From the NCBI GenBank assembly GCA_963663385.2, contig CAXXXD010000002.1, positions 1,280,001-1,344,000 on the forward strand: a stretch of DNA of 64,000 bases, written 5' to 3'. A program made the translations under genes and the position numbers. Under the pieces are notes generated by a model. That model worked only from the letters and a program-made list of their open reading frames with translations. It was not told the DNA's origin and searched no databases. Positions 31,351-62,814 of this stretch are shown here, one piece after another (the first letter of the stretch is position 1; each line of letters starts with the position of its first letter). The stretch is from Oceanispirochaeta sp. (GTDB taxonomy: Bacteria > Spirochaetota > Spirochaetia > DSM-2461).

Positions 31351-31524
31351 ACCCCTCTCGATCTCCCTCTGATTGCATAGGCGAGCAGGAAGCTTGCTTC
31401 CGACCAGCCCCTCAGGGGAGAAGTAAATTTGATTCCCCCTCCTCGAGGAGGGGGTTAGGGGGAGGTCTGGGAGCTGGCTGGTAAAACCCTCACCCTTTAA
31501 TTCCCTCTCCCAGAGGGAGAGGGA
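31351..31524. repeat. Cluster of C-rich/G-rich REP-like palindromes between convergent genes
   Basis: ccccctcctc/gaggaggggg (31435-31454) and ccctctccc-aga-gggagaggg (31503-31523); related copies at 59090-59180 and 62031-62807. Confidence 0.8.
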
Positions 31525-31530
31525 GTGTTA

Positions 31531-33528
31531 TTAAAACAGTGACGAACGGATCTTCCGTATCCGGCTGATTTTGCGGACGGGGCACTGAAAGGGCTTATCC
31601 GGAACTTCCGTGCCCGTCAGCATGGCCTGAGACTCTTTTTCCTGCTCCAGTGAACGGGGAATAATGCGATGGATTATCAGGTCATAATCATCTGTGGGCA
31701 GGGTAATTTCCAGCTGATAGGCTCTGTTTCCAAGAACAGACTGAATCATCCTCAGTTTTCCCTGATAGTCCAGACCTTTTACAGTGGTGATCTCCCGGCG
31801 TATCATCCCCGGACGGATCTGATCTTTCGCATAGACAACTCCCCGGGAGATTCTCCCTCTCATTTCCTCTTTCTCTTCATCGGAAAATTCTCCTTCCTTT
31901 TCCACGCAGTCAAACAGAGTCTGAAGTTCTTCGTCGGGAAGCGGGGGGATTAAATCCTCTTTCGTACCAGCTGTCCTGTCGGGAAAAAGGGAGGGGAGTG
32001 TTTCATAATTCAGAGCGTAGTCTGCGGGTGAAGAGATTTTTCGACCCGGAGATTCCGTACGGGGGATGGTTTCGATTCCCATATCGTGCATGGCATCTTC
32101 CCATTCACGGCGGTCTTCCGCTGCCAGCAGATAGACTCCCTCCGCCAGTTTTCGGCGTATCAGAGTCAAAAGACGGCTGTTCTGCTGTATCAGGGGTATC
32201 CTGTCAGGTCTGACCTCTAGAATGACTCCTTCCCACAGGCGGAGTCCGTAATAATCCTCCTCCCAGTCCTTCAGGGAAAAACGGATATTCTGGGGCAGGC
32301 TGAGCTGAAAACGGTTCCGGATATCCTCTTCCAGTTCTTCCAGACTCAACCCGGCTTTCAGAAAGCGGCGGAAGGATGCATCGCTTATCTTCAGCTGGGC
32401 AAAGGAGTCGTAACGGTCCGGCTTCAGTACAAGAGACAGGGGAAGACTGAACGGTGTATCAGGAGTCAGGTTGGCATCGAAGGTGGCATGAAGAAACAGA
32501 GTCCCTGCTGCCTGACTCTCCTCATTGAAAAAAGAGGGGATCATGGGATGAACGGAGTAGATTCCGTTATTTTCCAGAAAGAAACCGAATCGTTTCAGAA
32601 CCCGGATAATGTGTCCCGGGCTTATGGATGCGCTTTCGCCGGAAAGGCGTTCGCTTAAAAGGAGAATCAGAGTTTCCAGGTCTTTCTCATTAAGGGCCGC
32701 CCCTTCCGGTATCTGATCGGCCAGGGAGGCAATCAGCTGACTGCAGCTGCTTACCCTGGAACGTTCTCTGGTACAGAGGGCACCCCAAAGCCACAGGAGC
32801 TGATCTTTCCGGTTCCGGGCGGAAAACTTTTTAAGATTTTCCACCTTCAGACGCCACTCTCTGCCGCTCTCCTTCAGCAGGGAGAGGGTTTTCAGGGAAT
32901 TCAGCAGCAGGTGCAAAACCTCATTTGGTTCATCCGTAAAACCGGCGGAAGGAAAAACTCTGATCAGGGAGGCTGTAAAGCGCTTTTTTATGGATCCGTC
33001 ACTATTGCAGATCTGACTGTCTTCGTTCAGAAGAGAGAGAAAACAGATCAGAAAGGAGCCATTAATCAGAGGGATTTCCGCTGGTGCGGGAACACTGCCG
33101 TTCCGGAACCGGATAAACTGAACGGGACCGAGCTTTCCTCTGATTTCATCGGGAATCAGGGGGGAGAGGATGAGGCCCATCTTATGGCCGGTTTTGTCAA
33201 AAAAAATCAGAAGCCTCTCTTCCAGGTTCATCAGACTGCTGCGGATTGTACTCGGAGAGAGGATCCCGCTGAAAAAATCAATCAGCGTACTATGATCGGG
33301 ATGGTCGAACCACTGAATGGCGGAGAGAATCTTGAGATCCCGGGAACTGATACGCAGGGCAATTTTCCGTGTATTGGCCGGAAGGGTCAGGAAGCCTGCC
33401 AGTCTGGCAAGGAGCTCATTCTTGTCATAGGGCGTTTGTACTCCTCCCAGATAGTTATTCATAATCTCCATAAAGACACTGTCCGGGAGATTTCTCATCA
33501 GTCTGTTCCACTCATCCCGCTTGTTCAT
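31531..33528 (-). CDS. XPB-associated protein (Helicase_C_3-like domain)
   Basis: Coupled to XPB (ATGA overlap); LPQNIRFSLKDWEEDY motif typical of the XPB partner domain. Confidence 0.75.
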   Translation of the reverse strand: MNKRDEWNRLMRNLPDSVFMEIMNNYLGGVQTPYDKNELLARLAGFLTLPANTRKIALRISSRDLKILSAIQWFDHPDHSTLIDFFSGILSPSTIRSSLMNLEERLLIFFDKTGHKMGLILSPLIPDEIRGKLGPVQFIRFRNGSVPAPAEIPLINGSFLICFLSLLNEDSQICNSDGSIKKRFTASLIRVFPSAGFTDEPNEVLHLLLNSLKTLSLLKESGREWRLKVENLKKFSARNRKDQLLWLWGALCTRERSRVSSCSQLIASLADQIPEGAALNEKDLETLILLLSERLSGESASISPGHIIRVLKRFGFFLENNGIYSVHPMIPSFFNEESQAAGTLFLHATFDANLTPDTPFSLPLSLVLKPDRYDSFAQLKISDASFRRFLKAGLSLEELEEDIRNRFQLSLPQNIRFSLKDWEEDYYGLRLWEGVILEVRPDRIPLIQQNSRLLTLIRRKLAEGVYLLAAEDRREWEDAMHDMGIETIPRTESPGRKISSPADYALNYETLPSLFPDRTAGTKEDLIPPLPDEELQTLFDCVEKEGEFSDEEKEEMRGRISRGVVYAKDQIRPGMIRREITTVKGLDYQGKLRMIQSVLGNRAYQLEITLPTDDYDLIIHRIIPRSLEQEKESQAMLTGTEVPDKPFQCPVRKISRIRKIRSSLF

Positions 33529-35198
33529 AGATCCTCCAGTCCCAGAGAAATGGTGTACTGATACCCCTGTTCGGTAAGGAACTTCTGACGGTTTCCCGCG
33601 TACTGCTCTTCAATGGTATAGCGGCTTACAAGGGAGTAGAACCAGGAGTCCTTTTCTTTCGGTCTGAGGATACGGCCCAGGCGCTGGGCCTCCTCCTGAC
33701 GGGAGCCGAAGGTTCCTGAAATCTGGATGGCCAGGGACGCATCGGGAAGGTCTATGGCAAAGTTTGCCACTTTTGATACGACAATTACCCGGGAGCGGCC
33801 CTGCCGGAAATCTTCGTATATGGATTCACGCTCCTTATTGGGAGTCTGGCCTGTAATAAGCGGCGCCTTCAGGATTTTTGCTATTGTTTTAAGCTGCTGA
33901 ACATACTGACCTATTATCAGAGTAGCATCATCCGGGTGACGTTCCAGAATCTCTTTAACCATCTCCATTTTGGCCGGGTTTTCTGCGGCCAGCCGGAATT
34001 TCTGTCTTTTATCGGCTATGGCATAGGGTATCTTAAGTTCTTCGGGAAGATCCAGTCGAATCTCATGACACCAGGCTGTGGCGATCCACCCCCCCGCTTC
34101 CAGCTCTTTCCAGGGCACGTCGTATCGTTTGGGACCTACAAGAGAGAACACATCCTCTTCCGCTCCGTCTTCCCTGACCAGGGTTGCTGTCAGTCCCAGG
34201 CGGCGGACAGCCTGAATCTCTGCGGTCACCCTGAATACGGGTGCCGGCAGAAGGTGTACCTCATCGTAAATAATAAGGCCCCAGTTACCTTTGCGGAAGA
34301 GGGAGAAGTGCAGGTATTCACTCTCCCTGTCCTTTCGCCAGATAAGGATCTGGTAGGTTCCGATGGTGACAGGCCTGATGTCTTTTCTCTCACCCGTATA
34401 TTCACCAATGTCCTCTTCCCGCAGGTCTGTTTTTTCCAGAAGTTCCCGGCGCCATTGATGGACCGCTGCCACGTTGGTTGTCAAAATAAGGGTGCTGGTC
34501 TGCAGGCGGCTCATGGTTGTCATACCGATAACCGTTTTTCCGCCGCCGCAGGGAACCACTACCGTCCCGAAACCGGTACCGGGCTGGTTTTTACCGATAA
34601 AGGATTTAACCGCATCTTCCTGATAGTCTCTGATGCAAAATGGTTTTCCCCCGGGGAGTTCCTTCTTCAGGTTGATCTGACAGGGATCGCCATCTTTAAG
34701 AGGGGCCAGATCTTCGACGGGAAATCCGGCTTTAATCAGAATAAGCTTAATGGTTCCCCTGTCCACCAGATTCAGAAAAAAACCCTCCTCACCGGTGGTC
34801 AGGTACTTTTTCAGGGTTTTAAGATGGCTGATTTCCAGAAGAAGCACAGGATTCTCAATCCGAAGGAAGAGTACGTTTTCATCTTCAGTTGCTTCCAGTT
34901 TCAGCATCCCGTAGCGAGATAGAGTACTTCTAATAAAATAATTCACGTTCTCAGGTACGGGGAAACGGGAGTGGCGGTTCAGATTCTCAATAATTTCCTC
35001 TTCTCCCATACCGGCGGAAGCGGCATTCCAGAGGGAGAGGGGGCTCATACGGTAGGTATGAATATGTTCAGGAGATTTTTCCAGTTCAGCAAAAGGGCTT
35101 ATATCGGATCGGGCTTCATCAAAACCCGGATTGTGAACATCCAGCAGCAGGGAGTGGTCTCCCTGAACAATAAGAGGGCGAATTCCTGTATCAGTCAT
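33525..35198 (-). CDS. XPB/Ssl2-family DNA repair helicase
   Basis: PLIVQGD, ELEKSPEHIHTY, PCGGGKT, DEVH, GLTAT, QEEAQRLGRILRPK. Confidence 0.93.
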   Translation of the reverse strand: MTDTGIRPLIVQGDHSLLLDVHNPGFDEARSDISPFAELEKSPEHIHTYRMSPLSLWNAASAGMGEEEIIENLNRHSRFPVPENVNYFIRSTLSRYGMLKLEATEDENVLFLRIENPVLLLEISHLKTLKKYLTTGEEGFFLNLVDRGTIKLILIKAGFPVEDLAPLKDGDPCQINLKKELPGGKPFCIRDYQEDAVKSFIGKNQPGTGFGTVVVPCGGGKTVIGMTTMSRLQTSTLILTTNVAAVHQWRRELLEKTDLREEDIGEYTGERKDIRPVTIGTYQILIWRKDRESEYLHFSLFRKGNWGLIIYDEVHLLPAPVFRVTAEIQAVRRLGLTATLVREDGAEEDVFSLVGPKRYDVPWKELEAGGWIATAWCHEIRLDLPEELKIPYAIADKRQKFRLAAENPAKMEMVKEILERHPDDATLIIGQYVQQLKTIAKILKAPLITGQTPNKERESIYEDFRQGRSRVIVVSKVANFAIDLPDASLAIQISGTFGSRQEEAQRLGRILRPKEKDSWFYSLVSRYTIEEQYAGNRQKFLTEQGYQYTISLGLEDL

Positions 35199-35353
35199 AA
35201 CCAGCTATTCTATATCTTATGGCAGATAATGACAATAATGACCTGATTCCCGGGAACCATGATTGACTTTTACGGTATTCGAAGATTAAGCTGGGAAAAC
35301 AAACTCATTATTATAATTTAAATATAGCGTAAAAAACAGGATAATATATTGTT

Positions 35354-37282
35354 ATGAAACGAAGAAAATGGTTTTATCCCCTGATCATTCTTATCTATGT
35401 ATTTTTCATGATGCCTTTTGTATATTATCACTACCATCATACCAAAACCGATATTCTTAACCATCTGGATTCAGAGCTGTATAAGGCGGCCTGCAACCTT
35501 GAGATTCTCCTTGAAAAGGATTTTTTCGATACCTGGAATCCGGAGAGGCCATTACCTGAAGCAGATTATCAAATAGTGAAAAACAGACTCAACCGGTATG
35601 TCAGCAACCTTGACATAGAGTACGTGTATTCTATGGTTAAGCGGGAAAACGGTATCTATTTTGTTGTGAGCAACGAAACCGAAGAAGATATTAAAAGGGG
35701 AACACCAAGCCTTTTCTACACCCCCTATCCTGTTCCTCCGGAAGATCTGCTTAAGGCATTTGAAACGGGAAAAGTCGTATACCATTCATCCTATACCAAT
35801 ATCTGGAACAGTTACTACTCTGTTTTTGTCCCCAGGTACACAAAAGCCGGTTTACCCTATGTACTGGCCGCAGATATTAAAATGGAAGATCAGAAAAGTG
35901 CATTGAACGATAGTGTTTCCCAGCTGATTTTAACGATTCTATTACTGCTACTGCCGATTATTCCCTTTTACATAATCCTGTCTGTTCAGGGAAAGAACCG
36001 GGAGCAGGAGCTATTGAATCAGTTATTTACCGACTCACTGACGGGTCTTCCCAACAGAAAGAAATTTATCAGGGATAAGGAGTTTTCCTTTCTGCCCGGG
36101 ACCTCGGCCATAATGCTGGATATAGATTCCTTTCGGGAGATTAATAACCTGTTTGGAGGACGAACAGGCGATCGTGTTCTGTGTCATACAGCGGAAATAC
36201 TGAAATCCCACTGTGGTTCCGGAGATATCCTCTACAAGTTTCCGGCCGATGAATTTGTCATCCTGGTACAGAACAGGAGCCGGCGGGAGATTCAGGAACT
36301 GACAACCCGTATCCTCCAGGCTTTTTCCAACAGCCCCTTCCTTACAAAAGGGCAGTCCCTGAGCCTGTCTATCAGCGCAGGTATTGCTTTTGAACCGGAA
36401 TCTCAGAGAAAACTCCTTTCTTCCGCCAATATTGCCAAAAATCAGGCTAAAAGGGACAGGAAAGGTTATGTCCTGTACGAAGAATCCATGAATCTGGAGG
36501 ATCAGTACTCCATGAACTACTTCTGGCTGAACTCCCTGAAGGAAGCCCTGCTGGAGGAGCGTATACTTCCCTATTACCAGCCTATCTACCATAATCCTTC
36601 CGGCAGGATCAACAAGTTTGAAGCTCTTGTACGCCTTATAGACAAGGACGGGAATGCTGTTACTCCTGATAGATTCCTGCCTGTCGCCAAAAAGAGCAAA
36701 CTGTATAAACAGATTACTTTTGCAATGGTAAAAAGGGTTTTTCGGGATTTCATGAAAAACTCCCACAGGGTAAGCATAAACCTTTCTGTCAGAGATCTGC
36801 TGGATGATGACACGATCAGCTATCTTCTGGATATGGTGGAGGAATATCAGATGCAGGGCCGTCTTGTGGTGGAACTCCTGGAATCGGAATCCCTGCTGGG
36901 GATGGATAATCTGAAAAGCCTGCTCTGCAGCCTGCGCAGGAAGGGAATTGCCATTGCCATTGATGACTTCGGGAGCGGTTACTCCAATTTCTCCTATCTT
37001 TCAAACATTCCTGTGGATTTTATGAAAATAGACGGCTCCCTGATCCGGAGCCTGATGAGCAACAAGTCTTCCGAAGCGGTGGTTACAGCCATTTCCGCTT
37101 TTTCAAAAGATCTGGGCATTCCCCTTATTGCCGAATTTGTCCCGGACGGGGATACCCTTGAAAAGCTGATTTCTCTGGGAGTGGAATTCTCACAGGGTTA
37201 CTACATCGGCCGGCCTGTCCCCATTGAAGAACTGTCTATCCAGGCGGATTTCAGGCTTCTGAAGGATGGAAGCAGGCTGTAA
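35354..37282 (+). CDS. Membrane GGDEF-EAL protein (degenerate GGDEF: PADEF)
   Basis: TDSLTGLPNR, KFPADEF, FEALVRL, DDFGSGYS. Confidence 0.9.
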   Translation: MKRRKWFYPLIILIYVFFMMPFVYYHYHHTKTDILNHLDSELYKAACNLEILLEKDFFDTWNPERPLPEADYQIVKNRLNRYVSNLDIEYVYSMVKRENGIYFVVSNETEEDIKRGTPSLFYTPYPVPPEDLLKAFETGKVVYHSSYTNIWNSYYSVFVPRYTKAGLPYVLAADIKMEDQKSALNDSVSQLILTILLLLLPIIPFYIILSVQGKNREQELLNQLFTDSLTGLPNRKKFIRDKEFSFLPGTSAIMLDIDSFREINNLFGGRTGDRVLCHTAEILKSHCGSGDILYKFPADEFVILVQNRSRREIQELTTRILQAFSNSPFLTKGQSLSLSISAGIAFEPESQRKLLSSANIAKNQAKRDRKGYVLYEESMNLEDQYSMNYFWLNSLKEALLEERILPYYQPIYHNPSGRINKFEALVRLIDKDGNAVTPDRFLPVAKKSKLYKQITFAMVKRVFRDFMKNSHRVSINLSVRDLLDDDTISYLLDMVEEYQMQGRLVVELLESESLLGMDNLKSLLCSLRRKGIAIAIDDFGSGYSNFSYLSNIPVDFMKIDGSLIRSLMSNKSSEAVVTAISAFSKDLGIPLIAEFVPDGDTLEKLISLGVEFSQGYYIGRPVPIEELSIQADFRLLKDGSRL

Positions 37283-38246
37283 AGTGCCTTTCTCCTTTTT
37301 CTTCCATGGGAGGGAAACCCAGGCACTTTTCCGATCTCGATCCGCAGCGGTGATAAAAGGGACAGCCTTTTAACTCTTTCGTGGCGTCAAATGGTTCGAA
37401 TCCGCTTAAATTCAGGTTCCTGTCCATACGGGACGGGATACTGTCATAAAGCAGCCTGGTATAGGGGTGGTAACGATTCCGCACCAGGCTCCCGGCAGGG
37501 GCTTCCTCCATAAGACGTCCCCGGTACATAACCCCGATTCTGTCACAGAGGTAGGTGGTCACGGTCAGATCGTGAGCGATAAACAGCATGGTGAGGCGGA
37601 ATTTCTCCTTCAGTTCAAGCAGAAGGTTCAGAATCTGGCTCTGAATGGAAACATCCAGGGCGGAAACAACCTCATCGCAGATGAGAAGTTCCGGTTTCAT
37701 TATCAGGGCGCGGGCTATGGATATCCTCTGCCGCTGACCGCCGGAAAAATCCGAGGGACGGCGGTTCAGGTCATCCGGAGAGAGGCCTACGGTTCGCATC
37801 ATTTCAGCCGCTTCCTCTCTTGCCCTGTTCTCTCCGGGCCAGGCGGGAGACTGCTTGTATCCGGCTGTCAGGATCCGGTAGATGGTCATACGGGGATTCA
37901 GAGAGCGGGCCGGATCCTGAAATACATACTTGACTCTGCTTCGGTATTCAAACAGTTCCTTTTTTCTCAGTTCAGAGAGTTTGAGGACCCGGTTTTCCTT
38001 TTGGGTGGAACCGCCCCTGTAATAGAGAATTTCCCCCCCGTCCTGCCTGTACATCTGAATGGCCAGACGGGCCAGGGTTGTTTTCCCGCAGCCCGATTCG
38101 CCCACCAGGCCGTAACATTCCCCCCGGTGGAGTTTGATGCTCACATCGTTTACGGCATACACAAAGCGTCCGTACCTGGCAAAAAGACCTGCTTCCAGGG
38201 GAAAGTGCTTTTCCAGATTATTCATTTCCAGCAGCAGTTCACTCAT
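37251..38246 (-). CDS. Oligopeptide ABC transporter ATP-binding protein (OppF/DppF-like)
   Basis: GESGCGKT, FSGGQRQR, HPYT, C-terminal Cys cluster. Confidence 0.92.
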   Translation of the reverse strand: MSELLLEMNNLEKHFPLEAGLFARYGRFVYAVNDVSIKLHRGECYGLVGESGCGKTTLARLAIQMYRQDGGEILYYRGGSTQKENRVLKLSELRKKELFEYRSRVKYVFQDPARSLNPRMTIYRILTAGYKQSPAWPGENRAREEAAEMMRTVGLSPDDLNRRPSDFSGGQRQRISIARALIMKPELLICDEVVSALDVSIQSQILNLLLELKEKFRLTMLFIAHDLTVTTYLCDRIGVMYRGRLMEEAPAGSLVRNRYHPYTRLLYDSIPSRMDRNLNLSGFEPFDATKELKGCPFYHRCGSRSEKCLGFPPMEEKGERHFTACFHPSEA

Positions 38247-39207
38247 GGGCATTCCCCCTCAGGATGCAGCGTATTTTCCTTCCATCCTCTTTCTTTACGG
38301 AAGGGATGTTTTCCGTACAGCCTGAAAGGGCTTCGGGGCAGCGGGGGGCAAAGGGGCAGCCCGGTTCCGGGTTGATCGGATCGGGAACCGTGCCGGGAAT
38401 GGCTGTAAGTTTATCCGTTGTATAGTGGCTCCCGAAGGAGGGCATGGCATGAAGAAGCCCTTTGCTGTAGGGATGAAGCGGTTTTTTGTATATCTTTTCC
38501 GAGTCCCCCTCTTCCATAATCAGTCCCCCGTACATAACAAGTATCCGGTCGGCCACACGGCTTACAAGGTCCAGGTCGTGACTGATAAAGATTATCCCCA
38601 TTCCCCTTGACTCCCGCAGCTTCAGAAGCAACTCAATAATCTGGGCCTGAATGGTAACGTCCAGGGCTGTTGTCGCCTCGTCTGCAATAAGCAGCCGGGG
38701 ATCGGATGCCAGAGCCAGGGCAATCATCATCCTCTGGAGCTGGCCTCCCGAAAACTGATGGGGGAAGTTTCCCAGCCTGTTCTCTGGCTGGGGGATCTGA
38801 ACTTCCCTCATCAGCTCCAGAGTCCTCTCCCTCAGTTTTTCATCCGGTTCTCCGGTGTACTGCAGGCGCAGGGTTTCCCGGAAGGTTTTCTCCATATTGT
38901 AGAGGGGATCAAAAGATCGTCCGGGTTCCTGAAAGATCATGGCAATCTTTTTGCCCCGGAATTCCGGGAGCTCTTTTTTCTCCAGATGACCCACATTAAT
39001 CCCGTCTAACAGGATGTCCCCTTCTATCCGGGCGTAATCCGGCAGCAGGCGCATCAGCGACTGGGCTGTTACGGATTTTCCCGATCCGCTCTCACCTACG
39101 ATTCCCAGAATCTCTCCCTGCTCCATGGAGAGGCTTACTCCTCTGACGGCTTTGAGTTCTCCCCGTCTGAGAGGGAAGGTCACTTTAAGATTTTCAACTT
39201 CCAGCAT
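38239..39207 (-). CDS. Oligopeptide ABC transporter ATP-binding protein (OppD/DppD-like)
   Basis: GESGSGKS, PHQFSGG, TALDVTIQAQI. Confidence 0.92.
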   Translation of the reverse strand: MLEVENLKVTFPLRRGELKAVRGVSLSMEQGEILGIVGESGSGKSVTAQSLMRLLPDYARIEGDILLDGINVGHLEKKELPEFRGKKIAMIFQEPGRSFDPLYNMEKTFRETLRLQYTGEPDEKLRERTLELMREVQIPQPENRLGNFPHQFSGGQLQRMMIALALASDPRLLIADEATTALDVTIQAQIIELLLKLRESRGMGIIFISHDLDLVSRVADRILVMYGGLIMEEGDSEKIYKKPLHPYSKGLLHAMPSFGSHYTTDKLTAIPGTVPDPINPEPGCPFAPRCPEALSGCTENIPSVKKEDGRKIRCILRGNAHE

Positions 39208-40286
39208 TATCTGAGCCCTCCCTTATCACGGTGCCAGGGATCCAGGTAGTCCCGCAGCAGGTCGCCCAGAAAGTTGAATGCCAGGGTCGTGATGAGCAGA
39301 AAAAGACCTGGAATCAAAAACCAGGGGAAATTCATCAGGTTGCTGAGAGTGGAAATCTCCCGGTTAATCAGGCTTCCCCAGCTGACGGCGGGATCCACAA
39401 TCCCCAGCCCCAGATAGGAGAGAACGGTCTCTCCCAGGATAAAGCCGGGAATTCCCAGAGCTATGCTCACGATAATGATGGACGACATCTGGGGGATGAT
39501 CTGCCGGAAGATAATGGAGAGGGTGGGGATCCCCTCCAGTACGGCGTTGGAGATAAAATCCTCCCGTTTTATGCTGTGCACCAGTCCCCGTATCAGACGG
39601 GCCGATCCGGGCCAGCCCACAAAGGAGAGGATTACGACAATGACCATATAGGACTGTCCGCTGGTCATGCTCCGGGACAGGATGGACCGCAGAAAGAGGA
39701 TCAGGTACAGTCCGGGGATCAGGATGAAAAACTCGGAAAACCGCATAATAAGCCAATCCACCTTTCCCCCGTAGAACCCCGCCAGGCCTCCGAAGGTAAT
39801 GGCCAGGGTCATGGAGATGGCTATGCCGATAAAACCGATTGTAAGGCTGATGCGGCTGCCGTAGAGGATACGGGAGAAGAGGTCCCGTCCCAGGTTGTCC
39901 GATCCCATAAGGAATACCGGGTAGGCTTCAGAATCAGAACTCCCTTCAATCCCGAATAAATGGCGTTTCATTGGTATAGCATTCCATAATTTGTATGGAG
40001 TCCCTTTCGGAAAAAAACGAACCTTTATATATTCTCCTTTTATTCGTGCATATTCCCAGGTTAGTTCATTAATAACCTGTCTTTGCTGGATTTGTGGCCC
40101 GAACCCCAGTTCATGGGAGTACCATTGCAGATTCGGTGGATGGTAGCTGTGGTGAGCAAAGCTATTGGAGGGAGTGTACGGAGAAATAAACTCGGCAAAA
40201 ATCAGCATGAAATATAACAGGAAGAGTATAATAAGAGAAATAAACGCTGTCGGTCTGTGAAGGGATGCTTTTAAGAAGCTTTTCAT
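39207..40286 (-). CDS. Oligopeptide ABC transporter permease (OppC-like)
   Basis: GSDNLGRDLFSRILYGSRISL, LSYLGLG, FNFLGDLLRD. Confidence 0.92.
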   Translation of the reverse strand: MKSFLKASLHRPTAFISLIILFLLYFMLIFAEFISPYTPSNSFAHHSYHPPNLQWYSHELGFGPQIQQRQVINELTWEYARIKGEYIKVRFFPKGTPYKLWNAIPMKRHLFGIEGSSDSEAYPVFLMGSDNLGRDLFSRILYGSRISLTIGFIGIAISMTLAITFGGLAGFYGGKVDWLIMRFSEFFILIPGLYLILFLRSILSRSMTSGQSYMVIVVILSFVGWPGSARLIRGLVHSIKREDFISNAVLEGIPTLSIIFRQIIPQMSSIIIVSIALGIPGFILGETVLSYLGLGIVDPAVSWGSLINREISTLSNLMNFPWFLIPGLFLLITTLAFNFLGDLLRDYLDPWHRDKGGLR

Positions 40287-43176: not shown

Positions 43177-43274
43177 AATGTAGGCCTCCCTGAGTCGAGA
43201 TAATCTTTTCTTATATGAATTCTAATATATTGTTATCTTAGAAATCGGCAAAAAAGGAAGGTTTTCTGAATATT

Positions 43275-47440: not shown

Positions 47441-47473
47441 AATCAGGGATTGTACTGCTTTTTTCCGGGGACT

Positions 47474-49483: not shown

Positions 49484-49554
49484 GATATTTCAATTTTAGT
49501 TTACCCGGGGCAGGATATCAAAGAAAGCTTTTGCCTTTTTGAACAGGCTTTCTC

Positions 49555-50931: not shown

Positions 50932-50992
50932 AATAATACCTTTGCTTTTTAAGAATCAATGGAAATTATTGTAGCCGTCTTTGGGTGACGGG

Positions 50993-53820: not shown

Positions 53821-53967
53821 TCCCTTTTACGGGGAATGGGAAAGGGCTGCTTCAACAGTTGTTGAAAATATCTGCTTTTTGAAGAATTTCGCCCATTTTA
53901 TTGAATTGAATGGCAAGTTCCTGCTGTTATTGACTGTAAATACAGAGTAAAATTAAAGGAGATTACA

Positions 53968-54421
53968 GTGGGAGAAGCAGAGGTGGACCAGAATCAGCTG
54001 GAACAGATTGGGGATTATGTCAAAAGTAATATCGGTCAGTGGCTGAGAGATCAGCATATAATACCCTTTCCCGAAAGGGATAGAGGACTTGACCGGGAAT
54101 TGCTTGACCGCATGATTACGGTCGAACAGCAGTTGAAGTTTCAGAATGAGAAAATTGAGATGATGCTTGATCAGTCCGCAAAAAACTTTGATGCCATGGA
54201 AAAACGGTTTGAAACTGTAGATAAACGGTTTTGAGGAAATGCACTACTCAATGGATAAACGTTTTGAAGCAGTCGATAAACGTTTTGAAGCAGTCGATAA
54301 GCGTTTTGAAGACATGCAGCACTATATGGATAAGCGGTTTAATGTGATGACCGGTTTTATGGCATTTGGTTTTACCCTGATCACAGTTCTTATGTCTTTA
54401 TACAAATTTATTGTGGTGTAG
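53968..54421 (+). pseudogene. DKRFE-repeat coiled-coil protein with C-terminal TM (Bdr/DUF1640-like), +1 frameshift
   Basis: ORFs 53968-54234 and 54239-54421 join into 150 aa by removing one T of tttt at 54229-54232; colinear with the intact paralog at 61271-61702. Confidence 0.8.
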
Positions 54422-54451
54422 ACTTTTTTTATGACTAATTCCTTGTCACCG

Positions 54452-56222
54452 TCAGGGGAGTAAATCCTCCTCTTTCTTCAACAGATTCTGGAATTTCCGG
54501 ATATCCTCCTTTCGTACGGCAAATCTCCGTCCTTCCATACGGGAGAAAAGGGGCGAATCCATACCGTTCAGGTAATCAGCCAGAGTCCTGTCCTCCTCTG
54601 TGAGAACATATACCACCCAGTCCGCTTCTATCCTCAGTTTCACAAAGCGCTTCATAACCCGGGCGCGGAACTCCTCCCAGACCGGCGGCAGGGATTGGCC
54701 GCAGTACCGTTCCAGAGCGGCAAAGCGTGCTTCATAGTCCTCCCGGGTAGGGCAGGACCGGGCCAGAAGTTCCTCGTTTACCAGAAAAATATTGTTCCCC
54801 ACGGGGGTTCCGATGCTCCTGAAGAAGCCGGCGGCCGCTTTGTCTTCCGGATCCACCCGGGCCGTCAGAAACCGTTCATCCAGTGTTACCTGTTTTTTAC
54901 CTGTCTTTACGGTCCCATCATAATTCTCTTTCAGGCCGAACACATAGCGGCCCAGGGGGGTCATCCTGACAGCATGGAAAAGGTCTCCCTCTGCGGCACC
55001 CGGCCCGTCATCCCAGGCCAGCTCAAAAAGTCCCAGGGCGGCCCAGAGGACAAAGAGAGCCCGGAAAAAGGGCCTGTAGACCTCATTCCTGTAGTCCAGT
55101 TCGCTGTACAGGTAGACTTTCTCTTTATAGCTATGGCCAATATCGTAAAAAGTCTCCTCCACATAGTGCATATCCCCGTCGGGCATAAGGGGCAGGGCCG
55201 TGGACATCCTGCCGAAGACATTCAGGCAGGCCTCGGGATTCACCCAGCCCTGAAAGGGCCATTTTGTAAAAAGGACTTCGAAGTGGGGCATATGACTGCG
55301 CCGGAACTCACGGCTACTCTCCAGATAGTACGCTTTGGACTTTACCCTGATATGGGGCAGGAGGGTCCGCATATCAAAACTCGGTCTGACCGCTCCGGAA
55401 ATAGGCGCTTACCGCCTCTTTCAGAAATGTAAGGGCCTGTGTATCATCCGCAGGAGGTTCGGGGACAGGTTTTTTTTCTGAGGAGCAGTGGAAGCTGATA
55501 AATTCCAGGATCATTCTGAGCCTTCTGAAACCGTCATAACTGTCTGTATCGAAACCGAAGGGGGTCAGGATTCCCATGGCGGCTGCTTTTTTCAGGAGCG
55601 GTTTGGGTACCTTCTCCGTATAAGAGCGTTTAAAAAATCCCAGGTCCTTCAGCCTGTTTACAAGGGCGTGATAGTTCTGAAGAAATTCCTCTCCCTCTTC
55701 TTCTGTAAAGCGGAATTCCCCCGGGTTTGTCTCCCGGTCCAGGTCTTTCTCTTTGGGGGGGCGCCATAAACTCCGAAAAATTTCCCGCAGACCGGGGTGG
55801 ATAAACACGGAGCGTCCATAATGCTGCTTCAGATAGAAGGGCGCCGGCAGGTCCAGGTTTCCCGACGAATGAAAACCGCCGTATCCTCCGCTTTTTTCAG
55901 GGGGAATCTCAAAGGCTTCGGCCAGTTCCGGGCCGTCCTGCATGCCGTCCCAGGCGCAGAGACGGATAATCTCCCGGGCGGTCTCCCCCAGGCTGACTAT
56001 AAGGGCCTCAAAAAGACGGGCGTTCCCGTAGAGCCTGGCCACCAGGGAGCAGAGATCGGCCTTTCGGGTTATATGCCTGTCCAGGGTGTAAAAGTTCAAA
56101 GCTCCCAGTATTTTTTTCAGTTCATCCACCGTATGAATCCCGGCGGTCTCCTCGATCAGATCCCGGGAGGGCTCTGCGGATTCAAGGAGTTGATACAGCT
56201 CTTCCATTTCCAGTAAATCCAT
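54452..56222 (-). pseudogene. Large hypothetical SNF2-partner protein (~589 aa), +1 frameshift
   Basis: ORFs 55374-56252 and 54452-55372 join (GQTEF-DMRTLLP) by removing one A of aaaa at 55376-55379; starts 1 nt after the SNF2 stop with GGAGG upstream. Confidence 0.7.
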
Positions 56223-56223
56223 C

Positions 56224-59054
56224 CTACACCTCCCTCTGAAGCAGGTAGTCAATATCTTCCCCGCTCAGGGCTTTTACCGCCCCGCTGTCCGAAGAGATCA
56301 GGGCCGAGACCAGCTCTGTTTTTTTTGCCTGCAGTTCCAGCATCTTCTCTTCGATGGTACCCCGGCTGATCAGACGGTAGCAGAACACATTGTTTTTCTG
56401 GCCTATCCGGTGGGTCCGGTCTATGGCCTGCTGTTCCGCCCCCCGGTTCCACCAGGGGTCCAGAATATACACATAGTCCGCTCCGGTCAGGTTCAGGCCC
56501 ACCCCTCCTGTTTTCAGGGTCATAAGAAACACCTTATACTCCCGGGAGTCCTGAAAGGCCTCCACCAGTTCCGCCCGGTTGCGGGTGGCCCCGGTCATGG
56601 TCAGCCAGGGAATCCCCGCCTCTTCCAGTTTTCTCTCCATTATCTCCACGCTTCCCAGAAAGTTTGTAAAAATCAGACAGCGGTGCCCCTCGGCGGTTAC
56701 CTCTCCCAGATGGTCCAGCAGGGCGTCCCACTTGGCCGAAGCCACTTCCCCGTCGGTTTTCGATTCGGGTACCGATGCCAGCTGCCGCAGCTCCAGCAGC
56801 CCCTGGAGAATGAGGAACCGGGACTTTTCCACCCCTTCTACGGCAATCTTCTCTTTTATTACCTTCTCGTAAAAACGGCGCCTCTCCTCATAGAGGCGCA
56901 GCTGTTCCCCTTCCATCTCCACAAAAAGGGTCTGTTCGCTCTTTTCGGGCAGTTCCGCCGCCACCTGCTGTTTCAGCCTTCTCAGGGTAAAGGGGGCAAT
57001 CCGGCCGGAAAGGATTCTCAGGGCGGTTTCATCCCCGTTTTTCTGTATGGGAGAGGCAAACTCCCGGTTAAAGGCCGACTCTGTTCCCAGCAGGGCGGGG
57101 TTCAGAAAGCGGAAGAGCGAATACACTTCGCTCAGCCTGTTTTCCACGGGGGTGCCGCTCAGGGCCAGCCGGTGTTCTCCCTTCAGTAGCATGACCGCCC
57201 GGGATATCCGGGATGAACTGTTGCGGATGGCCTGGGCTTCATCCAGAACAATATAGGCAAAATCCCTTAACTGCAGAGCTTCGATGTCGTTCCGCACCAG
57301 GGCGTAGGTTGTCAGGATAATCCTGCTTTTCTCCGCCTCTTCCAGATCACGCTGCGCACCGTAGTAGGTATGAACCGTCAAATCCGGAGCAAAGCGTTTC
57401 AGCTCGGTCTTCCAGTTGTAAAGGAGGCTGCGGGGCAGCACAATCAGACTGGGATGCTTTACTTTTTTCTTTGTGCTTCCATTGTAATAATCTGCCAGCA
57501 GGGCGATGGTCTGGATGGTTTTACCCAGACCCATATCGTCGGCCAGGCACCCTCCCAGTTTATGCTTCTGCAGATAGGCCAGCCACTTAACCCCGTAAAC
57601 CTGATAGTCCCGGAGGGTTCCCTTCAGCCCTCTGCATCCGGGAGGGAGGGGGCTTTCTTCTATCCGGTTGAATCCTTCGAACAGTTCCCGGCTCCGGTCC
57701 ATCCCGGCTCCTGTAATTTTTGCGTCTATCAGCTGTTCCAGCAGGGGCAGGTCAAAGAGGGACACCCGGTAGTTCCCCTCCTTTTTCCGGTATTTCCCCA
57801 CCAGTCGGCGCAGGGCTTTTATATACCCTGTATCCAGAATGGCTTTGCTGCCGTCGGAGAGGGTATGTAGAGGTTTTCATCATAAAGCTTCAGGGCTTCT
57901 TCCAGGGGAAAGCTCTCCTCCCCCAGCTCCAGGGTTCCGGTTCCCTCAAAATAATCAATTCCCGATCCCGTCTGAAAGCTGAACCGGGGGTTTACCTTTT
58001 TCAGTTTAAGTTTCTGCAGGGCTTCTGTGCCGAAAAGCCGGTACCGGGAGGCTATCTCCCCAATGTGGGCGCTCAAAAAAGGAAGGGCCAGTTCGGCGGA
58101 GAGGTAGAAGGCCTCGTCCTCCACGGCGTAACCGCTGCTCAGGCCTTCCTGTTTCTCCAGTTTTTTCAGGGTGTGCACAAACCCTTTCAGGGAGTCCTCC
58201 TTTTCCGGGTAGCGGAGCTCCCTCCGGGTAAAGCGCTTTTTCTCATGATCCGCCCGGATCAGCGACACGGGCCGGTAGGTTGTTATAAAATCCAGGGGAT
58301 ACCCTTCAAGATACCACCGGGCCGTTACCTTCAGGGCTCCTTCTTCTGTAAGGGAATCAAAACACAGGGCATGCTCCGCTTCGGCCGGGCCGGTTTCCGC
58401 CCACTCATACCCCTCCATCCGGATGGCCACATGGGAAAACAGGGAGGAGAAGAGGGAGAGTGTCCGGTCCAGTTCATCCCTCCCGATCCATCCTGTCAGG
58501 TCCCCGAGCCTGTTGTAATGACTCCCCAGGGAGGCCGTGTTATAGAGTTCGTCCGACGAGAGCACCAGATCCCGGGAGAGGGCCCGCCCAAAGGGTTTCT
58601 CCTCTCCGGCGGAGCGGAGGGTCAGCTTCAGTGTGAATCCCTCCCGGCGGGGAGCAAGCTGCAGAACAGGCTGTGCCCCGGCCCCCGTATCCCGCAGCGG
58701 GCTCTGGGGGTTCCGCCAGTACAGGGAAATCCCCGCTTCCCGTATATCCTGCAGGAGCCCGGGGTACTCATCCAGGTAGAGGCCGTCCTTCTCCCCCGTC
58801 CAGGAGAAGTTTCCTGTCCGGCCGGCCTGAATATCCAGTATCTGGCGGTTGACGGAGCGCCGGGCGGGATCATCTTCCCGGCCGTGGGGCAGCCGTTCCC
58901 GGCCCCGTGCGTCTGTAAGGCGGATAAAGCAGCGGTCCGATGAATCGGGTTCCAGTATAAAAAAGAGCTCTTCTTCCGCTCCTGCGGGGGAAGGGATGCC
59001 TGTTTCTGCTTCTGCCAGGCGGCAGATTGTGTCAAAGGGGGAGGGGCTGTTCAT
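56224..59054 (-). pseudogene. SNF2-family helicase (~943 aa), -1 frameshift
   Basis: LRDYQ, LADDMGLGKT, DEAQ, LSGTPVEN, GGVGLNL, QAIDRTHRIGQ. Adding one base to ggg at 57861-57863 restores YIPLSDGSKAILDTGYIKALRRLVGKY. Confidence 0.88.
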
Positions 59055-59089
59055 GGGAAAATTATAGGGGGAAAGTTTTATTGAATCAA

Positions 59090-59180
59090 ACCCCTCTCAA
59101 TCTCCCCACAGGGGAGACGTCAATTCGGTTTCCCTTCCTGTGAAGGGGTCAGGGGAGGCCGCGAGGAGTGGGGGAGGTCG
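59090..59180. repeat. REP-like C-rich/G-rich palindromic element
   Basis: acccctctcaatctcccc-aca-ggggaga...ggggtcaggggaggcc; colinear with 31351-31467 but lacking the ~40-nt insert. Confidence 0.7.
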
Positions 59181-59201
59181 GGAGAGGTAAGACAAATACT
59201 C

Positions 59202-60140
59202 TCAAATAAATAGTTGAAACCTTTTTTCGAATAGTTCCAGGTATTTCTGCCTGGATGAGTCTTTCAGGAGTGAATCCTGTATAATCTGCTGTGTGGCCTC
59301 TCTTCTTTTTTCAAATCTTTTATGAATATTCATTATCTGCTTTTCTGTCAGTGTTAAGGAATCACCCAACGCAATGAAATCCCCAAGTTTGAGTTTTCTT
59401 CTTTTCCCGTTTATGGAGAGAGCGGATTCATCGGGGTCATTTTTTTCAGGGATAACAAGCCGAGTGTTCAGCAGATCATAGGCTGGAGCCAGGGTCGTAC
59501 CGGATTCAGTGTAGATAAGGGAGTAGTTTTTCAGGTGCATATCCGAATTCCCGGTCAGATAGGAAAATAGAACCAGTTCGTAAAAACGGAGAGCGTCAAG
59601 GAGTCTGTTTTCACAGTTTTTCAGTATGATTTTGCCTATCTGCTCTACCGATCCCCTGTATTTATCTTCCGTCATCTTTTCCAGGAGCTGAGCCATATCC
59701 TCCATATGGATCTTTTTATTTTTCATCCGGTCAATTCGTTTTGTAACATAGGCAATCTCTCCCGAAGCCATCGGCAGCAGGGCATGAGGAACAGTCTGAA
59801 TTCCTAATGAATCGGCCAGGCACATGGTCAAAAACTCATTTTCCGGAAGCTGTTCATACTGTTCCACCTGAGGTTTCAGAATATAATCTCCCCATAAACC
59901 CACAAATGTCAGCTTGTTCTCATGGGACTCTTTTTGTATTGTCAGAGACAGTTTTTTTTGTACGCCTGTCATGGCTGTCTTCTGACGGATTATCCGGCCG
60001 GCCAGTTTTTTCAGATCCTTTGTATCAAAAGGTATTTTGGGCGGTTTGGTCATCCCGAACATTTTACGGGAACAGGATGGGTGGTAGCGCTGTTCCTCTT
60101 TTAAACACGGCTTTCCGCAGATAAGGCAGATTTCACTCAT
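59202..60140 (-). CDS. HipA-family kinase toxin (HipA_C / HipT-like)
   Basis: TGVQKKL, YILKP, GNSDMHLKNYS, LAPAYDLL; N-terminal CxxC...HxxC. Confidence 0.92.
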   Translation of the reverse strand: MSEICLICGKPCLKEEQRYHPSCSRKMFGMTKPPKIPFDTKDLKKLAGRIIRQKTAMTGVQKKLSLTIQKESHENKLTFVGLWGDYILKPQVEQYEQLPENEFLTMCLADSLGIQTVPHALLPMASGEIAYVTKRIDRMKNKKIHMEDMAQLLEKMTEDKYRGSVEQIGKIILKNCENRLLDALRFYELVLFSYLTGNSDMHLKNYSLIYTESGTTLAPAYDLLNTRLVIPEKNDPDESALSINGKRRKLKLGDFIALGDSLTLTEKQIMNIHKRFEKRREATQQIIQDSLLKDSSRQKYLELFEKRFQLFI

Positions 60141-60466
60141 TATTCGGTTCTCTCCATGGGGTAAACCGAAACGGCGCCGATACAGTCCTTGCAGCAGCTC
60201 AGAAGGAGACCCATTCTATCCCTTTCGTTCAGTTTCCAGTTGGATTCGGCAATCCTGAGAAGCCATCCTTCCGGAATCAGTCCGTCAAAAAAAGGAAAGA
60301 GTGTTTTATTGTAAAAGGAGGCTTTCTGCAGGGGGAGGGTAAGACTGATACAGTGCGGGGTATCAGACTTTAAATACTCTTCATGGTAGGTAAAATGGTA
60401 TCCATCATCATTCTCAACAAGAATCCCTGCCGCCTGCTCCCGGTAGAATATTTCAGCTTTGCGCAT
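60140..60466 (-). CDS. HipA N-terminal domain protein (Couple_hipA / HipS-like)
   Basis: AGILVE...YHFTY...ISLTLP...LFPFFDGLIPEGW...DCIGAVS. Confidence 0.9.
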   Translation of the reverse strand: MRKAEIFYREQAAGILVENDDGYHFTYHEEYLKSDTPHCISLTLPLQKASFYNKTLFPFFDGLIPEGWLLRIAESNWKLNERDRMGLLLSCCKDCIGAVSVYPMERTE

Positions 60467-60665
60467 AATCCATCCTTGCAGGAACCATTTTCATTCCAAA
60501 AAGGGCCAGAACCTGATTTATTTTGTCCAGTCTGAGACTCTCCTTTCCCTGTTCCATATCGCGAATAAACCGTAAACCCACACCGGCCCTGTCGGCCAGG
60601 TCCTGCTGGGTCATTCCCAGCTGAGATCGTTTCTGCTTTAATACTTGAATCAGCTCTTCGGTCAT
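60453..60665 (-). CDS. HipB-like XRE/HTH regulator
   Basis: KRSQLGMTQQDLADRAGVGLRFIRDMEQGK...LRLDKINQVL. Confidence 0.9.
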   Translation of the reverse strand: MTEELIQVLKQKRSQLGMTQQDLADRAGVGLRFIRDMEQGKESLRLDKINQVLALFGMKMVPARMDYAQS

Positions 60666-60667
60666 AC

Positions 60668-60765
60668 TATACCATATCGGGTATAAAATGTGTTTTCAAT
60701 AAGAAATTATACCCGATATGGTATAAAGTGGTACTTTTGGAAGAAAATATACCTGATCGGGTATA
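60668..60765. promoter_or_regulatory. Three TATACC-N6-GGTATA operators and putative promoter of the hip operon
   Basis: Sites at 60668-60685, 60708-60725, 60748-60765; minus strand reads TTGAAA-N17-TATGGT-N5-ATG. Confidence 0.8.
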
Positions 60766-60780
60766 TTTGGAGCTTTTCTG

Positions 60781-61095
60781 TCAGTTATTTTTTTCAGAAA
60801 AAACAGCGGGGGAGACATTAAAGCGTTTGCTCAGGTTTTCGATATGTTCCCGGTTCAGTTTTCTTTTGCCTCTTAGAATTTCAGAGACAACCCCCTGGGA
60901 TCCTATCTCCTGATAAAGATCTTTCTGCTTAAGCCCGTACTCTTTCATAAAATATTTCAACATGGAAATTCCGTCAGGTTCATCTATTACAGAATGAGCA
61001 TCATCATAGATTTCAATAATAAGTGTAAGCAGTTCCATCACGGGATACAGTGTGTGTTCTCTGTTTCCATTGACCTTTTCATTTATTCTTGTCAT
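60781..61095 (-). CDS. HigA-like HTH antitoxin/regulator, no cognate toxin adjacent
   Basis: LTLIIEIYD...LKYFMKEYGLKQKDL...IGSQGVVSEILRGKRKLNREHIENLSKRFNVSPAVF. Confidence 0.8.
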   Translation of the reverse strand: MTRINEKVNGNREHTLYPVMELLTLIIEIYDDAHSVIDEPDGISMLKYFMKEYGLKQKDLYQEIGSQGVVSEILRGKRKLNREHIENLSKRFNVSPAVFSEKNN

Positions 61096-61270
61096 GCTCT
61101 GCCTGTGTTAAAAATATCCTATATGAGATATTTGTCAATGTTTAAATTTTTAAGCATCTCTCATCAGGAATTCAGATAAAATCAGACTTTTAATACTTAT
61201 ATTCTGAAGCAGTACCGGAATTTGGTCTGTTAATAGCTGTGAAAACGCAGTAATATTAATGGAGACTATT

Positions 61271-61702
61271 ATGGGAGAAGCTCAGGTGGATCAGAATCAA
61301 CTGGATCAGATAGGTAGTTATGTTAGAAGCCATATTGGACAATGGCTCCGTGAACAGAATATCCTGCCTTTTCCGGAAAGGGAAAGAGGACTTGATCGGG
61401 AAATCCTTGACCGGATAATAACAGTGGAACAACAGCTGAAATTTCAGAATGAAAAAATAGAGATGATGATGGTGCAGTCTGATAAACGTTTTGAGTCCAT
61501 GGATAAAAGATTTGAGTCCATGGATAAAAGGTTTGAGTCCATGGATAAAAGGTTTACAGATATGCAGTTGTATATGGATAAACGATTTGAGGCTTCCCAG
61601 AAGAATATGAGTCAGAGTTTTAACAGAGTTTATGGATTACTGACAATTATATTTGCGGGTATGCTGAGCGGATTTGTTACTTTGATTGTTAAACTGGTTT
61701 GA
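61271..61702 (+). CDS. DKRFE-repeat coiled-coil protein with C-terminal TM (Bdr/DUF1640-like)
   Basis: (MDKRFES)n heptads, hydrophobic C-terminus, GGAGA upstream; paralog of 53968-54421. Confidence 0.8.
   Translation: MGEAQVDQNQLDQIGSYVRSHIGQWLREQNILPFPERERGLDREILDRIITVEQQLKFQNEKIEMMMVQSDKRFESMDKRFESMDKRFESMDKRFTDMQLYMDKRFEASQKNMSQSFNRVYGLLTIIFAGMLSGFVTLIVKLV
61481..61564 (+). repeat. 21-bp in-frame tandem repeat (about 4 copies)
   Basis: gataaaNgNtttgagtccatg units encoding DKRFESM. Confidence 0.85.
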
Positions 61703-62049
61703 TGATTGAGATACAAATCATCGCTTAATTAATCACTTAGTCAAAATAAATGAAAGAATATTTTTCACTCGTATAACTCCCTTTCTTAAAAAGATTTATC
61801 ATTACGTAATGTTCAACTCATGAACAAAATCAATAAAATCAGCTTATTTCTTATTGTTAAACTCTTTTTGTTGTGATATGTTCATTAACTGAACAAAGAC
61901 CGGTTTTACTCCGGTTTGCGGGGTTAATGAGTCTTATCAGTTTAAGCTTGTGTTTCGGCCGGTTTGAACAGGGGGCTCTACAGGTTTGGTTTTGCGCTGT
62001 TTTTTTGATGACAGCGGGTGGGGGTGGTTTGACCTCCCCCCGGCCCCCT

Positions 62050-62252
62050 CCTCAAGGAGGGGGAGAAGAGTCTTGTTTTTTTCTTCGTAGTATAGTGACT
62101 CTATCCCTTGTCCATCGGTCTCCCTAATCCCTCAAGGAGGGGGAGAAGAGTCTTGTTTTTTTCTTTGTAGTATAGTGACTCTATCCCTTGTCCATCGGTC
62201 TCCCTAATCCCTCAAGGAGGGGGAGAAGAGTCTTGTTTTTTTTCTTTGTAGT
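62050..62252. repeat. 80-bp tandem repeat, about 2.5 copies
   Basis: ctcaaggagggggagaagagtcttg... recurs at 62051, 62131 and 62211, nearly identical. Confidence 0.92.
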
Positions 62253-62352
62253 GATAGCGGTTTTATTCCTGGCTCTATATCTCGACTATGCTGCTATACG
62301 CAGTTCGCTCGGTATTTAGCGCTTGGGAATCATCCGGGCCTCCTTCTGGCCA

Positions 62353-62807
62353 GACCTCCCCCGGCTCTGGTCATTCCGCTACGTTGCATTGCTCGAGTAT
62401 GCATAAATCAGATTCACCCTACTATTCCGGTCAGTTTCAGGAATCTAATGATGAATCAGATATAAACATGCTGTGTTCGATACGAGATCTCAGGTTTTGA
62501 GATGTGGTTTTAGTGAACCCCTCTCCCCCTTCATATCGACTACGTTCGATGACTTGTTGGTACCCCTCTCCCCCGACCCCTTGATCACAAACTTCGTTTG
62601 TTGCACAGGCAGGCGTCCGGCCTCTCCCAGAGTGAGAGGGGAGGAATGTTTATTGTGGAAACCCTCTCCCTTTAATTCCCTCTCCCAGAGTGCGAGGGAT
62701 TAGATATTAAGATATGGATAAAAAACTGATAATGGCCTCCCCTGACCCTGGTCATTCCGCTTCGCTGCATTGCTCGGACATGCAGCCGGGCCCCTCCGGA
62801 GGAGGGG
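62353..62807. repeat. Cluster of REP-like palindromes carrying nested ~40-nt structured inserts
   Basis: Hosts at 62353, 62562, 62659 and 62734; inserts at 62367-62411, 62581-62620 and 62748-62790. Confidence 0.75.
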
Positions 62808-62814
62808 AATAAAT

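Follow-up and report, generated by a model that had tools for sequence, protein, structure and literature searches.

The 64,000-nucleotide stretch of Oceanispirochaeta sp. DNA analysed here, hereafter termed the window, carries four short sequences that are probably copies of an ultra-small, non-autonomous mobile element. The unit is one interrupted hairpin on one strand, consisting of a basal stem, a GGT:GCT segment, a middle stem and an unpaired tail. Together with relatives in other genomes and in metagenomes, the four copies form part of a widespread and apparently undescribed family of such elements. The most unusual trait of this family is that the basal stem co-varies with the insertion site, which is plainly seen as a pattern and for which we infer a mechanism below. 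The four copies (A to D) are given here along with the palindromic repeats that host some of them or lie unfilled nearby; class names refer to the basal-stem sub-families described later.

31352..31421, minus strand: filled G-type host palindrome around copy A, recognised by host-family comparison
31365..31411, minus strand: copy A, GG-class, basal stem of GG+C with GCC, located in the G-rich arm of the host palindrome; 54.0 bits
31485..31530, plus strand: unfilled C-type host, a leader plus C-rich palindrome, compared with filled hosts
59091..59117, minus strand: unfilled G-type host palindrome, from sequence reading and host-family comparison
62363..62412, plus strand: copy B, CT-class, 5' flank GCT and internal GAGT; 20.5 bits, E 0.0017
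62577..62624, plus strand: copy D, CC-class, beginning with T, degenerate, in front of a C-rich palindrome; 44.1 bits
62659..62700, plus strand: unfilled C-type host, from sequence reading
62744..62793, plus strand: copy C; 30.9 bits, E 2e-6

A preliminary description of the window had placed the four copies at 31369-31407 (minus strand), 62367-62411, 62581-62620 and 62748-62790, and both their positions and their layout prove exact when the sequence is reread. Empty host palindromes, which it had noted at approximately 59090, 31485, 62659 and 62031, are likewise present. The scan it had proposed was made with a covariance model (R1) built from 52 copies, including A and D and excluding B and C. 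This model finds four places only in the 64-kb window, which are copies A to D, and the next match scores 9.5 bits (E 1.8). Copies B and C share an unusual middle hairpin, which in copy B is imperfect and 7 bp long, and the 3' tail of copy B is atypical. Copy C is flanked by a C-rich leader, and by a hairpin and ribosome-binding site upstream of a gene that starts near position 62816. The sub-family of copy D has at least seven other members in the genome.

The element has a defined fold. In the variable basal stem, the two to three bases preceding a conserved YTGGTC, along with its Y, pair with bases 3-6 of the eight-base stretch (N8) that had originally been read as the loop of a TGC/GCA hairpin. 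This stem is followed by a U/C mismatch, an invariant GGU:GCU segment (G.U, G:C and U.G), a C/U mismatch and then the middle hairpin, which is a 6-bp stem of free sequence. A conserved ATGCA-NCC tail lies 3' of the hairpin and is best read as single-stranded. When RNAalifold was applied to the alignment and six sequences were folded singly, with no structure supplied, the same unknotted extended hairpin was obtained.

Covariation was assessed in an alignment (A2) of 52 distinct copies chosen by a pattern that requires at least five middle-hairpin pairs and leaves the flank outside the selection. All six pairs of the middle hairpin show changes on both sides, which bears out the earlier remark that this hairpin varies yet remains self-complementary. 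The share of its cells that are paired is inflated because the pattern demanded at least five pairs, whereas the compensatory changes are unaffected. The basal helix, in which the four bases ending in the Y of YTGGTC face N8 bases 3-6, shows changes on both sides in all four pairs, and its second pair is GC in 34 copies, CG in 16, AU in two and unpaired in none. Overall, 95.5% of cells are paired under the hairpin model, and its covariation score is 0.555 versus 0.183 for shuffled alignments, with none of 500 shuffles reaching it, although such statistics overstate significance given that the copies are kin. Slid registers of the same model score only 0.058-0.160. The GNA loops noted on the opposite strand of copies B to D are indeed present, and follow from the fact that the loops read TAC or TTC.

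The copies had originally been described as three-way junctions, and this model has been set aside in favour of the better-supported hairpin. Its closing stem pairs on paper (79.3% of cells), but none of its four pairs covaries. The TGC/GCA hairpin also pairs on paper, but it lacks covariation in all three of its pairs, and its presumed N8 loop is one strand of the covarying helix formed with the 5' flank. The few variants that are informative are accommodated by the hairpin but not by the junction: U to C changes create a C:G pair (twice) or a G:C pair (once), and a G to A change creates a U:A pair (once). The junction is thus possible but unsupported. Given that two wobble pairs are each kept in 49 of the 52 rows, the fold is specific to the strand as written.

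A compact fold with conserved unpaired bases might suggest a small self-cleaving ribozyme, or a pseudoknot resembling known riboswitches if the two originally proposed stems also form. We consider this highly improbable. The stems required for a pseudoknot never covary, and the core motifs of hammerhead, twister and pistol ribozymes are not seen. No Rfam family matches the window at its gathering score and none overlaps the element at E values up to 10, even when short stretches are searched. The element had not been recognised as a described family from its sequence, and the Rfam result agrees with this. Moreover, the open-access literature yielded no description of the element or its core strings.

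That four such copies lie in one window is far beyond chance. A strict pattern gives 17-18 matches in the 5.31-Mb genome versus one for a reversed-pattern control, nhmmer finds 31 full-length copies, and R1 finds 34 at E<=0.001. A descriptor based on structure only was too loose to be of use (2414 matches versus 2461 in the reversed genome). Within the same taxonomic family, R1 matches occur in 28 of 38 genomes with 0-35 copies each. A congener (G007) carries 35 copies and genome G012 carries 32, compared with one in G002 and none in G011, G016 and G049. The distribution is patchy in an even sample of the phylum, where six of 151 genomes have matches at E<=1e-5, and two distant families in that sample carry 18 and 32 copies.

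Searches beyond the phylum also returned relatives. An exact-pattern scan of one genome per species gave mostly chance matches in GC-rich genomes, and approximately eight of 118 stretches are convincing among the matches listed. These convincing copies lie in metagenome-assembled genomes titled Geobacteraceae, Bacillota (three), Clostridiaceae and Spirochaetaceae. A stricter pattern recovered at least 123 stretches from metagenomes. A blastn search of plasmid and phage collections with one copy as a 48-base query returned nothing at E 0.01.

The relationship between the element and its surroundings becomes apparent when the flank is compared with the interior. In a test of the three bases before the element plus its first base against the internal four bases, pairing is seen in 71 of 87 cells across 29 distinct combinations, whereas permuted loops give 39.0 +/- 4.7 and none of 10000 permutations reaches the observed value. 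Shifting the flank by one, two or three bases reduces pairing from 121 to 83, 62 and 52 of 138. The stem classes observed are GG(G)/GCC(Y), CC(C)/GGG or AGG, GCT/GAGT, GAA/GTTC, GGA/GTCC, GCC/GGGT, GGT/GACC, GGC/GGCT and GTG/GCAC, the last of these in another family. The same relationship is evident in 120 distinct metagenomic copies, among the matches listed, that were picked for the GCCC class only. The two bases preceding these copies are G in 113 and 113 cases, a G stands third from the copy in 69, and the fourth position shows no preference. The 120 copies carry 85 different middle hairpins.

Each class has its own surroundings. GG-class copies are found in the G-runs of palindromes and at purine-rich or Shine-Dalgarno-like sites by start codons, CC-class copies are located at the C-run before C-rich palindromes, and CT-class copies lie in the invariant GCT of other copies. 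The preliminary description had proposed that the element targets another repeat. There is indeed enrichment at C-rich palindromes: of the 31 copies in this genome, 10 have a perfect C-rich 6-bp palindrome no more than 45 bases away, versus 3.5% of random intergenic 42-mers. However, the proposal was too narrow, because such hosts are one of several target classes matched to the basal stem.

Its suggestion that the copies are a tiny, non-autonomous, insertion-like repeat is upheld by clean pairs of filled and empty paralogues. Each insertion adds approximately 42 bases, consisting of a 39-41-base unit and a 2-3-base junction repeat. Three such sites are provided by group II introns of the congener G007 and of this genome, which occur as near-identical paralogous copies. 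At site 1, in domain I, a 42-base insertion is present in two copies with identical flanks. At site 3, which lies in the reverse transcriptase gene within the conserved stretch IPK..GG.R.LGIP, a 42-base insertion is found in four of the six copies. This insertion is in frame and free of stops, such that open frames of 465 versus 451 residues are retained in at least four copies, and the match to the reverse transcriptase domain RVT_1 spans 669 versus 627 bases in filled versus unfilled genes. At sites 1 and 3 the junction is ambiguous by two bases (GG).

Comparison of two loci in the congener (L154 and L155) with L156 shows that the element inserts 14 residues, in frame, into the finger region of the reverse transcriptase. 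Four or five or more filled intron genes have intact frames of 465-473 codons, and either the enzyme tolerates these 14 residues or the filled introns move with help in trans. Group II introns are clustered in this genome (G000; C2:1.654-1.687 Mb, and L140), where several of the ten maturase matches are arranged tail to head within 35 kb.

Copies also nest within one another. When copy A is aligned to C2:1395815-1395965, a further copy appears as a 42-column gap inside the region originally labelled N8, and copy A is therefore an unfilled paralogue of a nested pair. Six nested copies are present in this genome and two in locus L157 of genome G003, or seven when one is counted per place. All belong to the GAGT (CT-class) sub-family, and all share one internal site, which follows the invariant TGCT. 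Among relatives, tandem arrays of two to six units with a period of 41-43 bases are found, some of them at contig ends.

Host palindromes offer additional filled and empty examples. The G-type palindrome is present in 30 unfilled copies in the genome, and filled forms are those of copy A, C2:1395826 (to 1395937), C2:1793540, C2:1093166 and C2:1403777 (truncated). Copy A and its hosts lie in a spacer of 217 bases, compared with 16-69 bases between the same two genes in seven congeners. Relatives of copy A that are 98-100% identical over 37-45 bases occur elsewhere in G007, where its flanking genes are only approximately 75% identical to those of this genome. Constraint, continued activity or transfer is therefore needed to account for the similarity of these copies.

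Several observations in the window concern the hosts themselves or exchange between copies. By eye, positions 62040-62250 hold three tandem units of approximately 80 bases, each with a host-type C-rich/G-rich hairpin followed by a T-run. A host palindrome and its downstream G-rich box (31433-31467) resemble the Whalefall-1 RNA (RF01762), scoring 27.3 bits, below the Rfam gathering threshold of 37. This RNA is known to date only from whale-fall metagenomes, and it may be a repeat of the host-palindrome kind. In a sequencing run that contains a related strain, a contig of depth 2 corresponding to positions 62402-62773 fuses copies B and C, with six other letters between them and 370 bases skipped. 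From this joining contig, element copies seem to recombine with one another. No clean single-unit polymorphism was found in the contigs of four runs compared with window positions 58001-64000.

The genomic positions of the copies bear on whether the element is instead a structured RNA module, serving translation, mRNA stability or protein binding, that was multiplied by duplication and looks mobile only secondarily. By crude calls of open reading frames (ORFs), 24 of 31 full-length copies in this genome are intergenic. Of 25 intergenic copies, 17 share their strand with the gene upstream and 11 with the gene downstream, and relatives include sense arrays located between a stop codon and the next gene that end directly in its ribosome-binding site and start codon. 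These arrangements, together with a strand-specific fold, two near-invariant G.U pairs, covarying stems and conserved junction and tail bases, are as expected of functional RNAs. However, there is no tie to a gene class, and six of the 25 intergenic copies are antisense to both neighbours. Only 10 of the 120 metagenomic copies listed have GGAG or GAGG within 16 bases.

Furthermore, 12 of the 104 metagenomic copies listed are embedded, in one orientation or the other, in open frames that extend 60 codons or more to each side and include a relaxase gene, and copies also enter intron RNA and each other. Copy number varies from 0 to 35 among relatives, and Rfam holds no match. We therefore regard an RNA module as unlikely. 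The conserved G.U-type pairs lean towards RNA, whereas the antisense copies and those in ORFs in both orientations lean towards DNA. Among the 104 metagenomic copies listed (loci L203-L325), 53 are free of stops in all six frames, and well-paired distinct hairpins have this property in 59% of cases versus 47 +/- 5% with arms shuffled, which is a weak signal.

The preliminary description had suggested an HUH or REP-type transposase, where REP denotes repetitive extragenic palindromic sequences. Such an element, of the REP/REPIN/PATE or IS200/IS605 type, would be moved as single-stranded DNA by a Y1 (RAYT/TnpA) or Y2 (IS91-type) HUH transposase with internal bases acting as a guide to the cleavage or target site, as in IS608. 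A hairpin with a conserved single-stranded tag is consistent with this, as is the complementarity between flank and internal bases, which resembles guide/target pairing in IS200/IS605 elements. In addition, this genome has five Y1 genes, and some metagenomic copies lie in or beside genes for IS91-like Y2 proteins and relaxases.

However, the idea is not supported. A different inverted repeat, and not the element, borders each of the five Y1 genes, and Y1 is present in only 10 of 31 relatives. Genomes G012, G017 and G018, which carry 32, 20 and 22 copies and are 95-99% complete, have no Y1 or Y2 match, whereas G002 has seven Y2 matches and a single copy. Copies interrupt the Y2 and relaxase genes instead of flanking them: IS91-like Y2 genes are broken by three copies in locus L223 (metagenome) and by two in L194 (genome G105), and three relaxase genes each have one copy within the open frame. 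There is no replication-strand bias in this genome (15 versus 16 copies by GC-skew strand), and the GTAG/CGTC tag of REP sequences is absent in alignment A2, where the conserved bases are YTGGTC, TGCTC and ATGCA-NCC. Movement by an HUH transposase thus appears improbable.

The five Y1 genes of this genome (C2:636477, C2:486153, C4:803924, C2:1217534 and C4:603892) all differ from one another, are 165-176 codons long and encode IS200/RAYT-like proteins. Repeats of the GGGGACGGAGG type precede each gene and recur in inverted form after it, which makes this a second repeat system, distinct from the element. An IS110-family element, whose frame has 422 codons, is also present in ten identical copies (e.g. 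C2:1015886).

A route through an RNA copy and reverse transcription by a group II intron enzyme or another reverse transcriptase would agree with the conserved G.U-type wobbles and with the presence of copies within group II introns, where at least four positions are occupied. This genome and G007 are rich in both introns (10 and 13 maturase matches) and copies. However, G005, G014, G032 and G033, with 4-10 copies, have no RVT_1 match, and the only reverse transcriptase in G018, which has 22 copies, is a stop-bearing fragment of 69 amino acids. Conversely, G042 has nine reverse transcriptase matches and no copy, and neither G008 nor G018 has a group II maturase domain. We judge this route to be quite improbable. 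Y1, Y2, group II maturase and RVT_1 genes do not track the element among relatives. In this genome, no transposase-sized gene is bracketed by element ends, there being only two chance-like pairs of end motifs 0.5-3.5 kb apart. Two same-strand copies on C1 enclose ordinary genes, for an acyltransferase and a phosphodiester glycosidase.

Compared with known systems, the element appears closest in behaviour to the GC clusters of yeast mitochondria and, among bacteria, to REP and REPIN sequences. GC clusters are described as 42-bp hairpins present in dozens of copies, with a duplicated 2-base target, a constrained hairpin, presence/absence polymorphism and no transposase of their own (PMC4478555). 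For the GC42 cluster, a hairpin of 42 bp, the duplicated target is AG, the stems are constrained and the mechanism is unsettled (PMC4478555). The comparison is one of behaviour. GC clusters are organellar and eukaryotic and have a fixed AG target, whereas the dinucleotide of the element varies by sub-family and matches its own stem. The element also nests in itself at a fixed site and spans several bacterial phyla. A 1989 paper by Weiller reportedly names tandem arrays of GC clusters in its title.

REP, BIME and REPIN sequences are short imperfect intergenic palindromes in many copies that form clusters or mosaics with other repeats and show compensatory stem changes (PMC3116915, PMC3733652). 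The element is likewise a short imperfect palindrome in many, mostly intergenic copies (34 in this genome; 24 of 31 intergenic). Unlike REP sequences, it flanks no RAYT gene, is abundant where Y1 is absent, and enters ORFs and structured RNA genes. It resembles IS200/IS605 elements in that a few internal bases are complementary to those just outside the left end. In both, alteration of these internal bases would be predicted to alter the target. The element differs from them by its lack of Y1 co-occurrence and strand bias, by having one hairpin and not two, and by its junction repeat.

With respect to miniature inverted-repeat transposable elements (MITEs), a 2-3-base junction repeat accompanies the copies at nested and host sites and at two of the intron sites (1 and 3) but is missing from intron site 2, and the ends are alike in inverted order in only part of the copies of A2. 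The element lacks the defining features of a REP/RAYT system, an IS200/IS605 mini-element and a MITE with a known parent.

Two other groups are also relevant. Small dispersed repeats of cyanobacteria, reportedly treated by Elhai et al. in 2008, are said to be approximately 20-30 nt long, mobile, able to enter other repeats and hairpins, and without a known transposase. The element is close to these but has another sequence and fold, and neither a stem-matched target nor cross-phylum spread is known among them. Rickettsia palindromic elements are translated in-frame insertions in protein genes, 100-150 bp in length and confined to one lineage. Both they and the element are palindromic and insert in frame, although the unit described here is 42 bases.

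Two readings fit the match between stem and site. In the first, the target supplies two bases, which must pair with the stem of the element. In the second, the element carries the two bases and joins where the same bases occur, via a crossover core or microhomology. The second is favoured because of intron site 2, where the 42-base insertion carries its own CC. New copies would enter where two to three bases pair with the 3' strand of the basal stem or equal the carried dinucleotide. The stem would then serve as a short address, directing GG-class elements to G-runs and Shine-Dalgarno-like sites, CC-class elements to C-rich palindromes and CT-class elements to the invariant GCT of other copies. 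The intermediate may be single-stranded. Its enzyme might be host replication or repair machinery, through template switching at microhomology, or a trans-acting protein, and would perhaps be something other than a Y1 or Y2 HUH transposase or a reverse transcriptase of the kind recognised by Pfam RVT_1.

In its most far-reaching form, the proposal is of a self-addressed mobile nucleic acid. The 3' basal strand would be a programmable guide of 2-4 bases, and stem mutations would generate new target sub-families, one of which parasitises the core of its relatives. No dedicated transposase or reverse transcriptase would take part, and the folded strand itself would perhaps participate in the chemistry. 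We grant this extended version a small but real chance.

Certain observations weigh against the interpretation of the family as mobile and stem-addressed. The junction at intron site 2 has no ambiguity and its flanks are less alike. This speaks against simple target duplication and means that the leader may travel with the element and not come from the target. Exceptions to the match between flank and stem include AGA, GGG with GGGT, AAC and a mutated flank in locus L201. All filled/empty pairs are paralogues, with none between isogenic strains, and since many filled hosts belong to one sub-family, host and element may have spread together, so that independent events would be fewer than copies. 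The kinship of the copies inflates the shuffle statistics. The conserved G.U wobbles would be equally compatible with RNA and with a DNA strand. No recurrent neighbour gene lies beside the 123 metagenomic copies listed, the largest cluster comprising six loci, and neither an autonomous partner nor a moving enzyme was found in the genes and genomes examined.

Ultra-small elements test how little sequence is needed for mobility. With its defined fold, naturally retargeted sub-families, insertions that keep the frame of working genes and a fixed site for self-nesting, this family provides a clean handle on that question. It has spread across phyla yet shows no link to the usual suspects, namely HUH transposases and reverse transcriptases. 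For those who annotate genomes, there are practical consequences as well: the units lengthen proteins by 14 residues, assemblies break at them, given that arrays are located at contig ends, and a unit in front of a gene can be taken for a small RNA or a riboswitch. If the stem does set the address, the family would illustrate, in minimal and natural form, how base pairing can choose a target, and would be a possible bacterial counterpart of the long-unexplained mitochondrial GC clusters.

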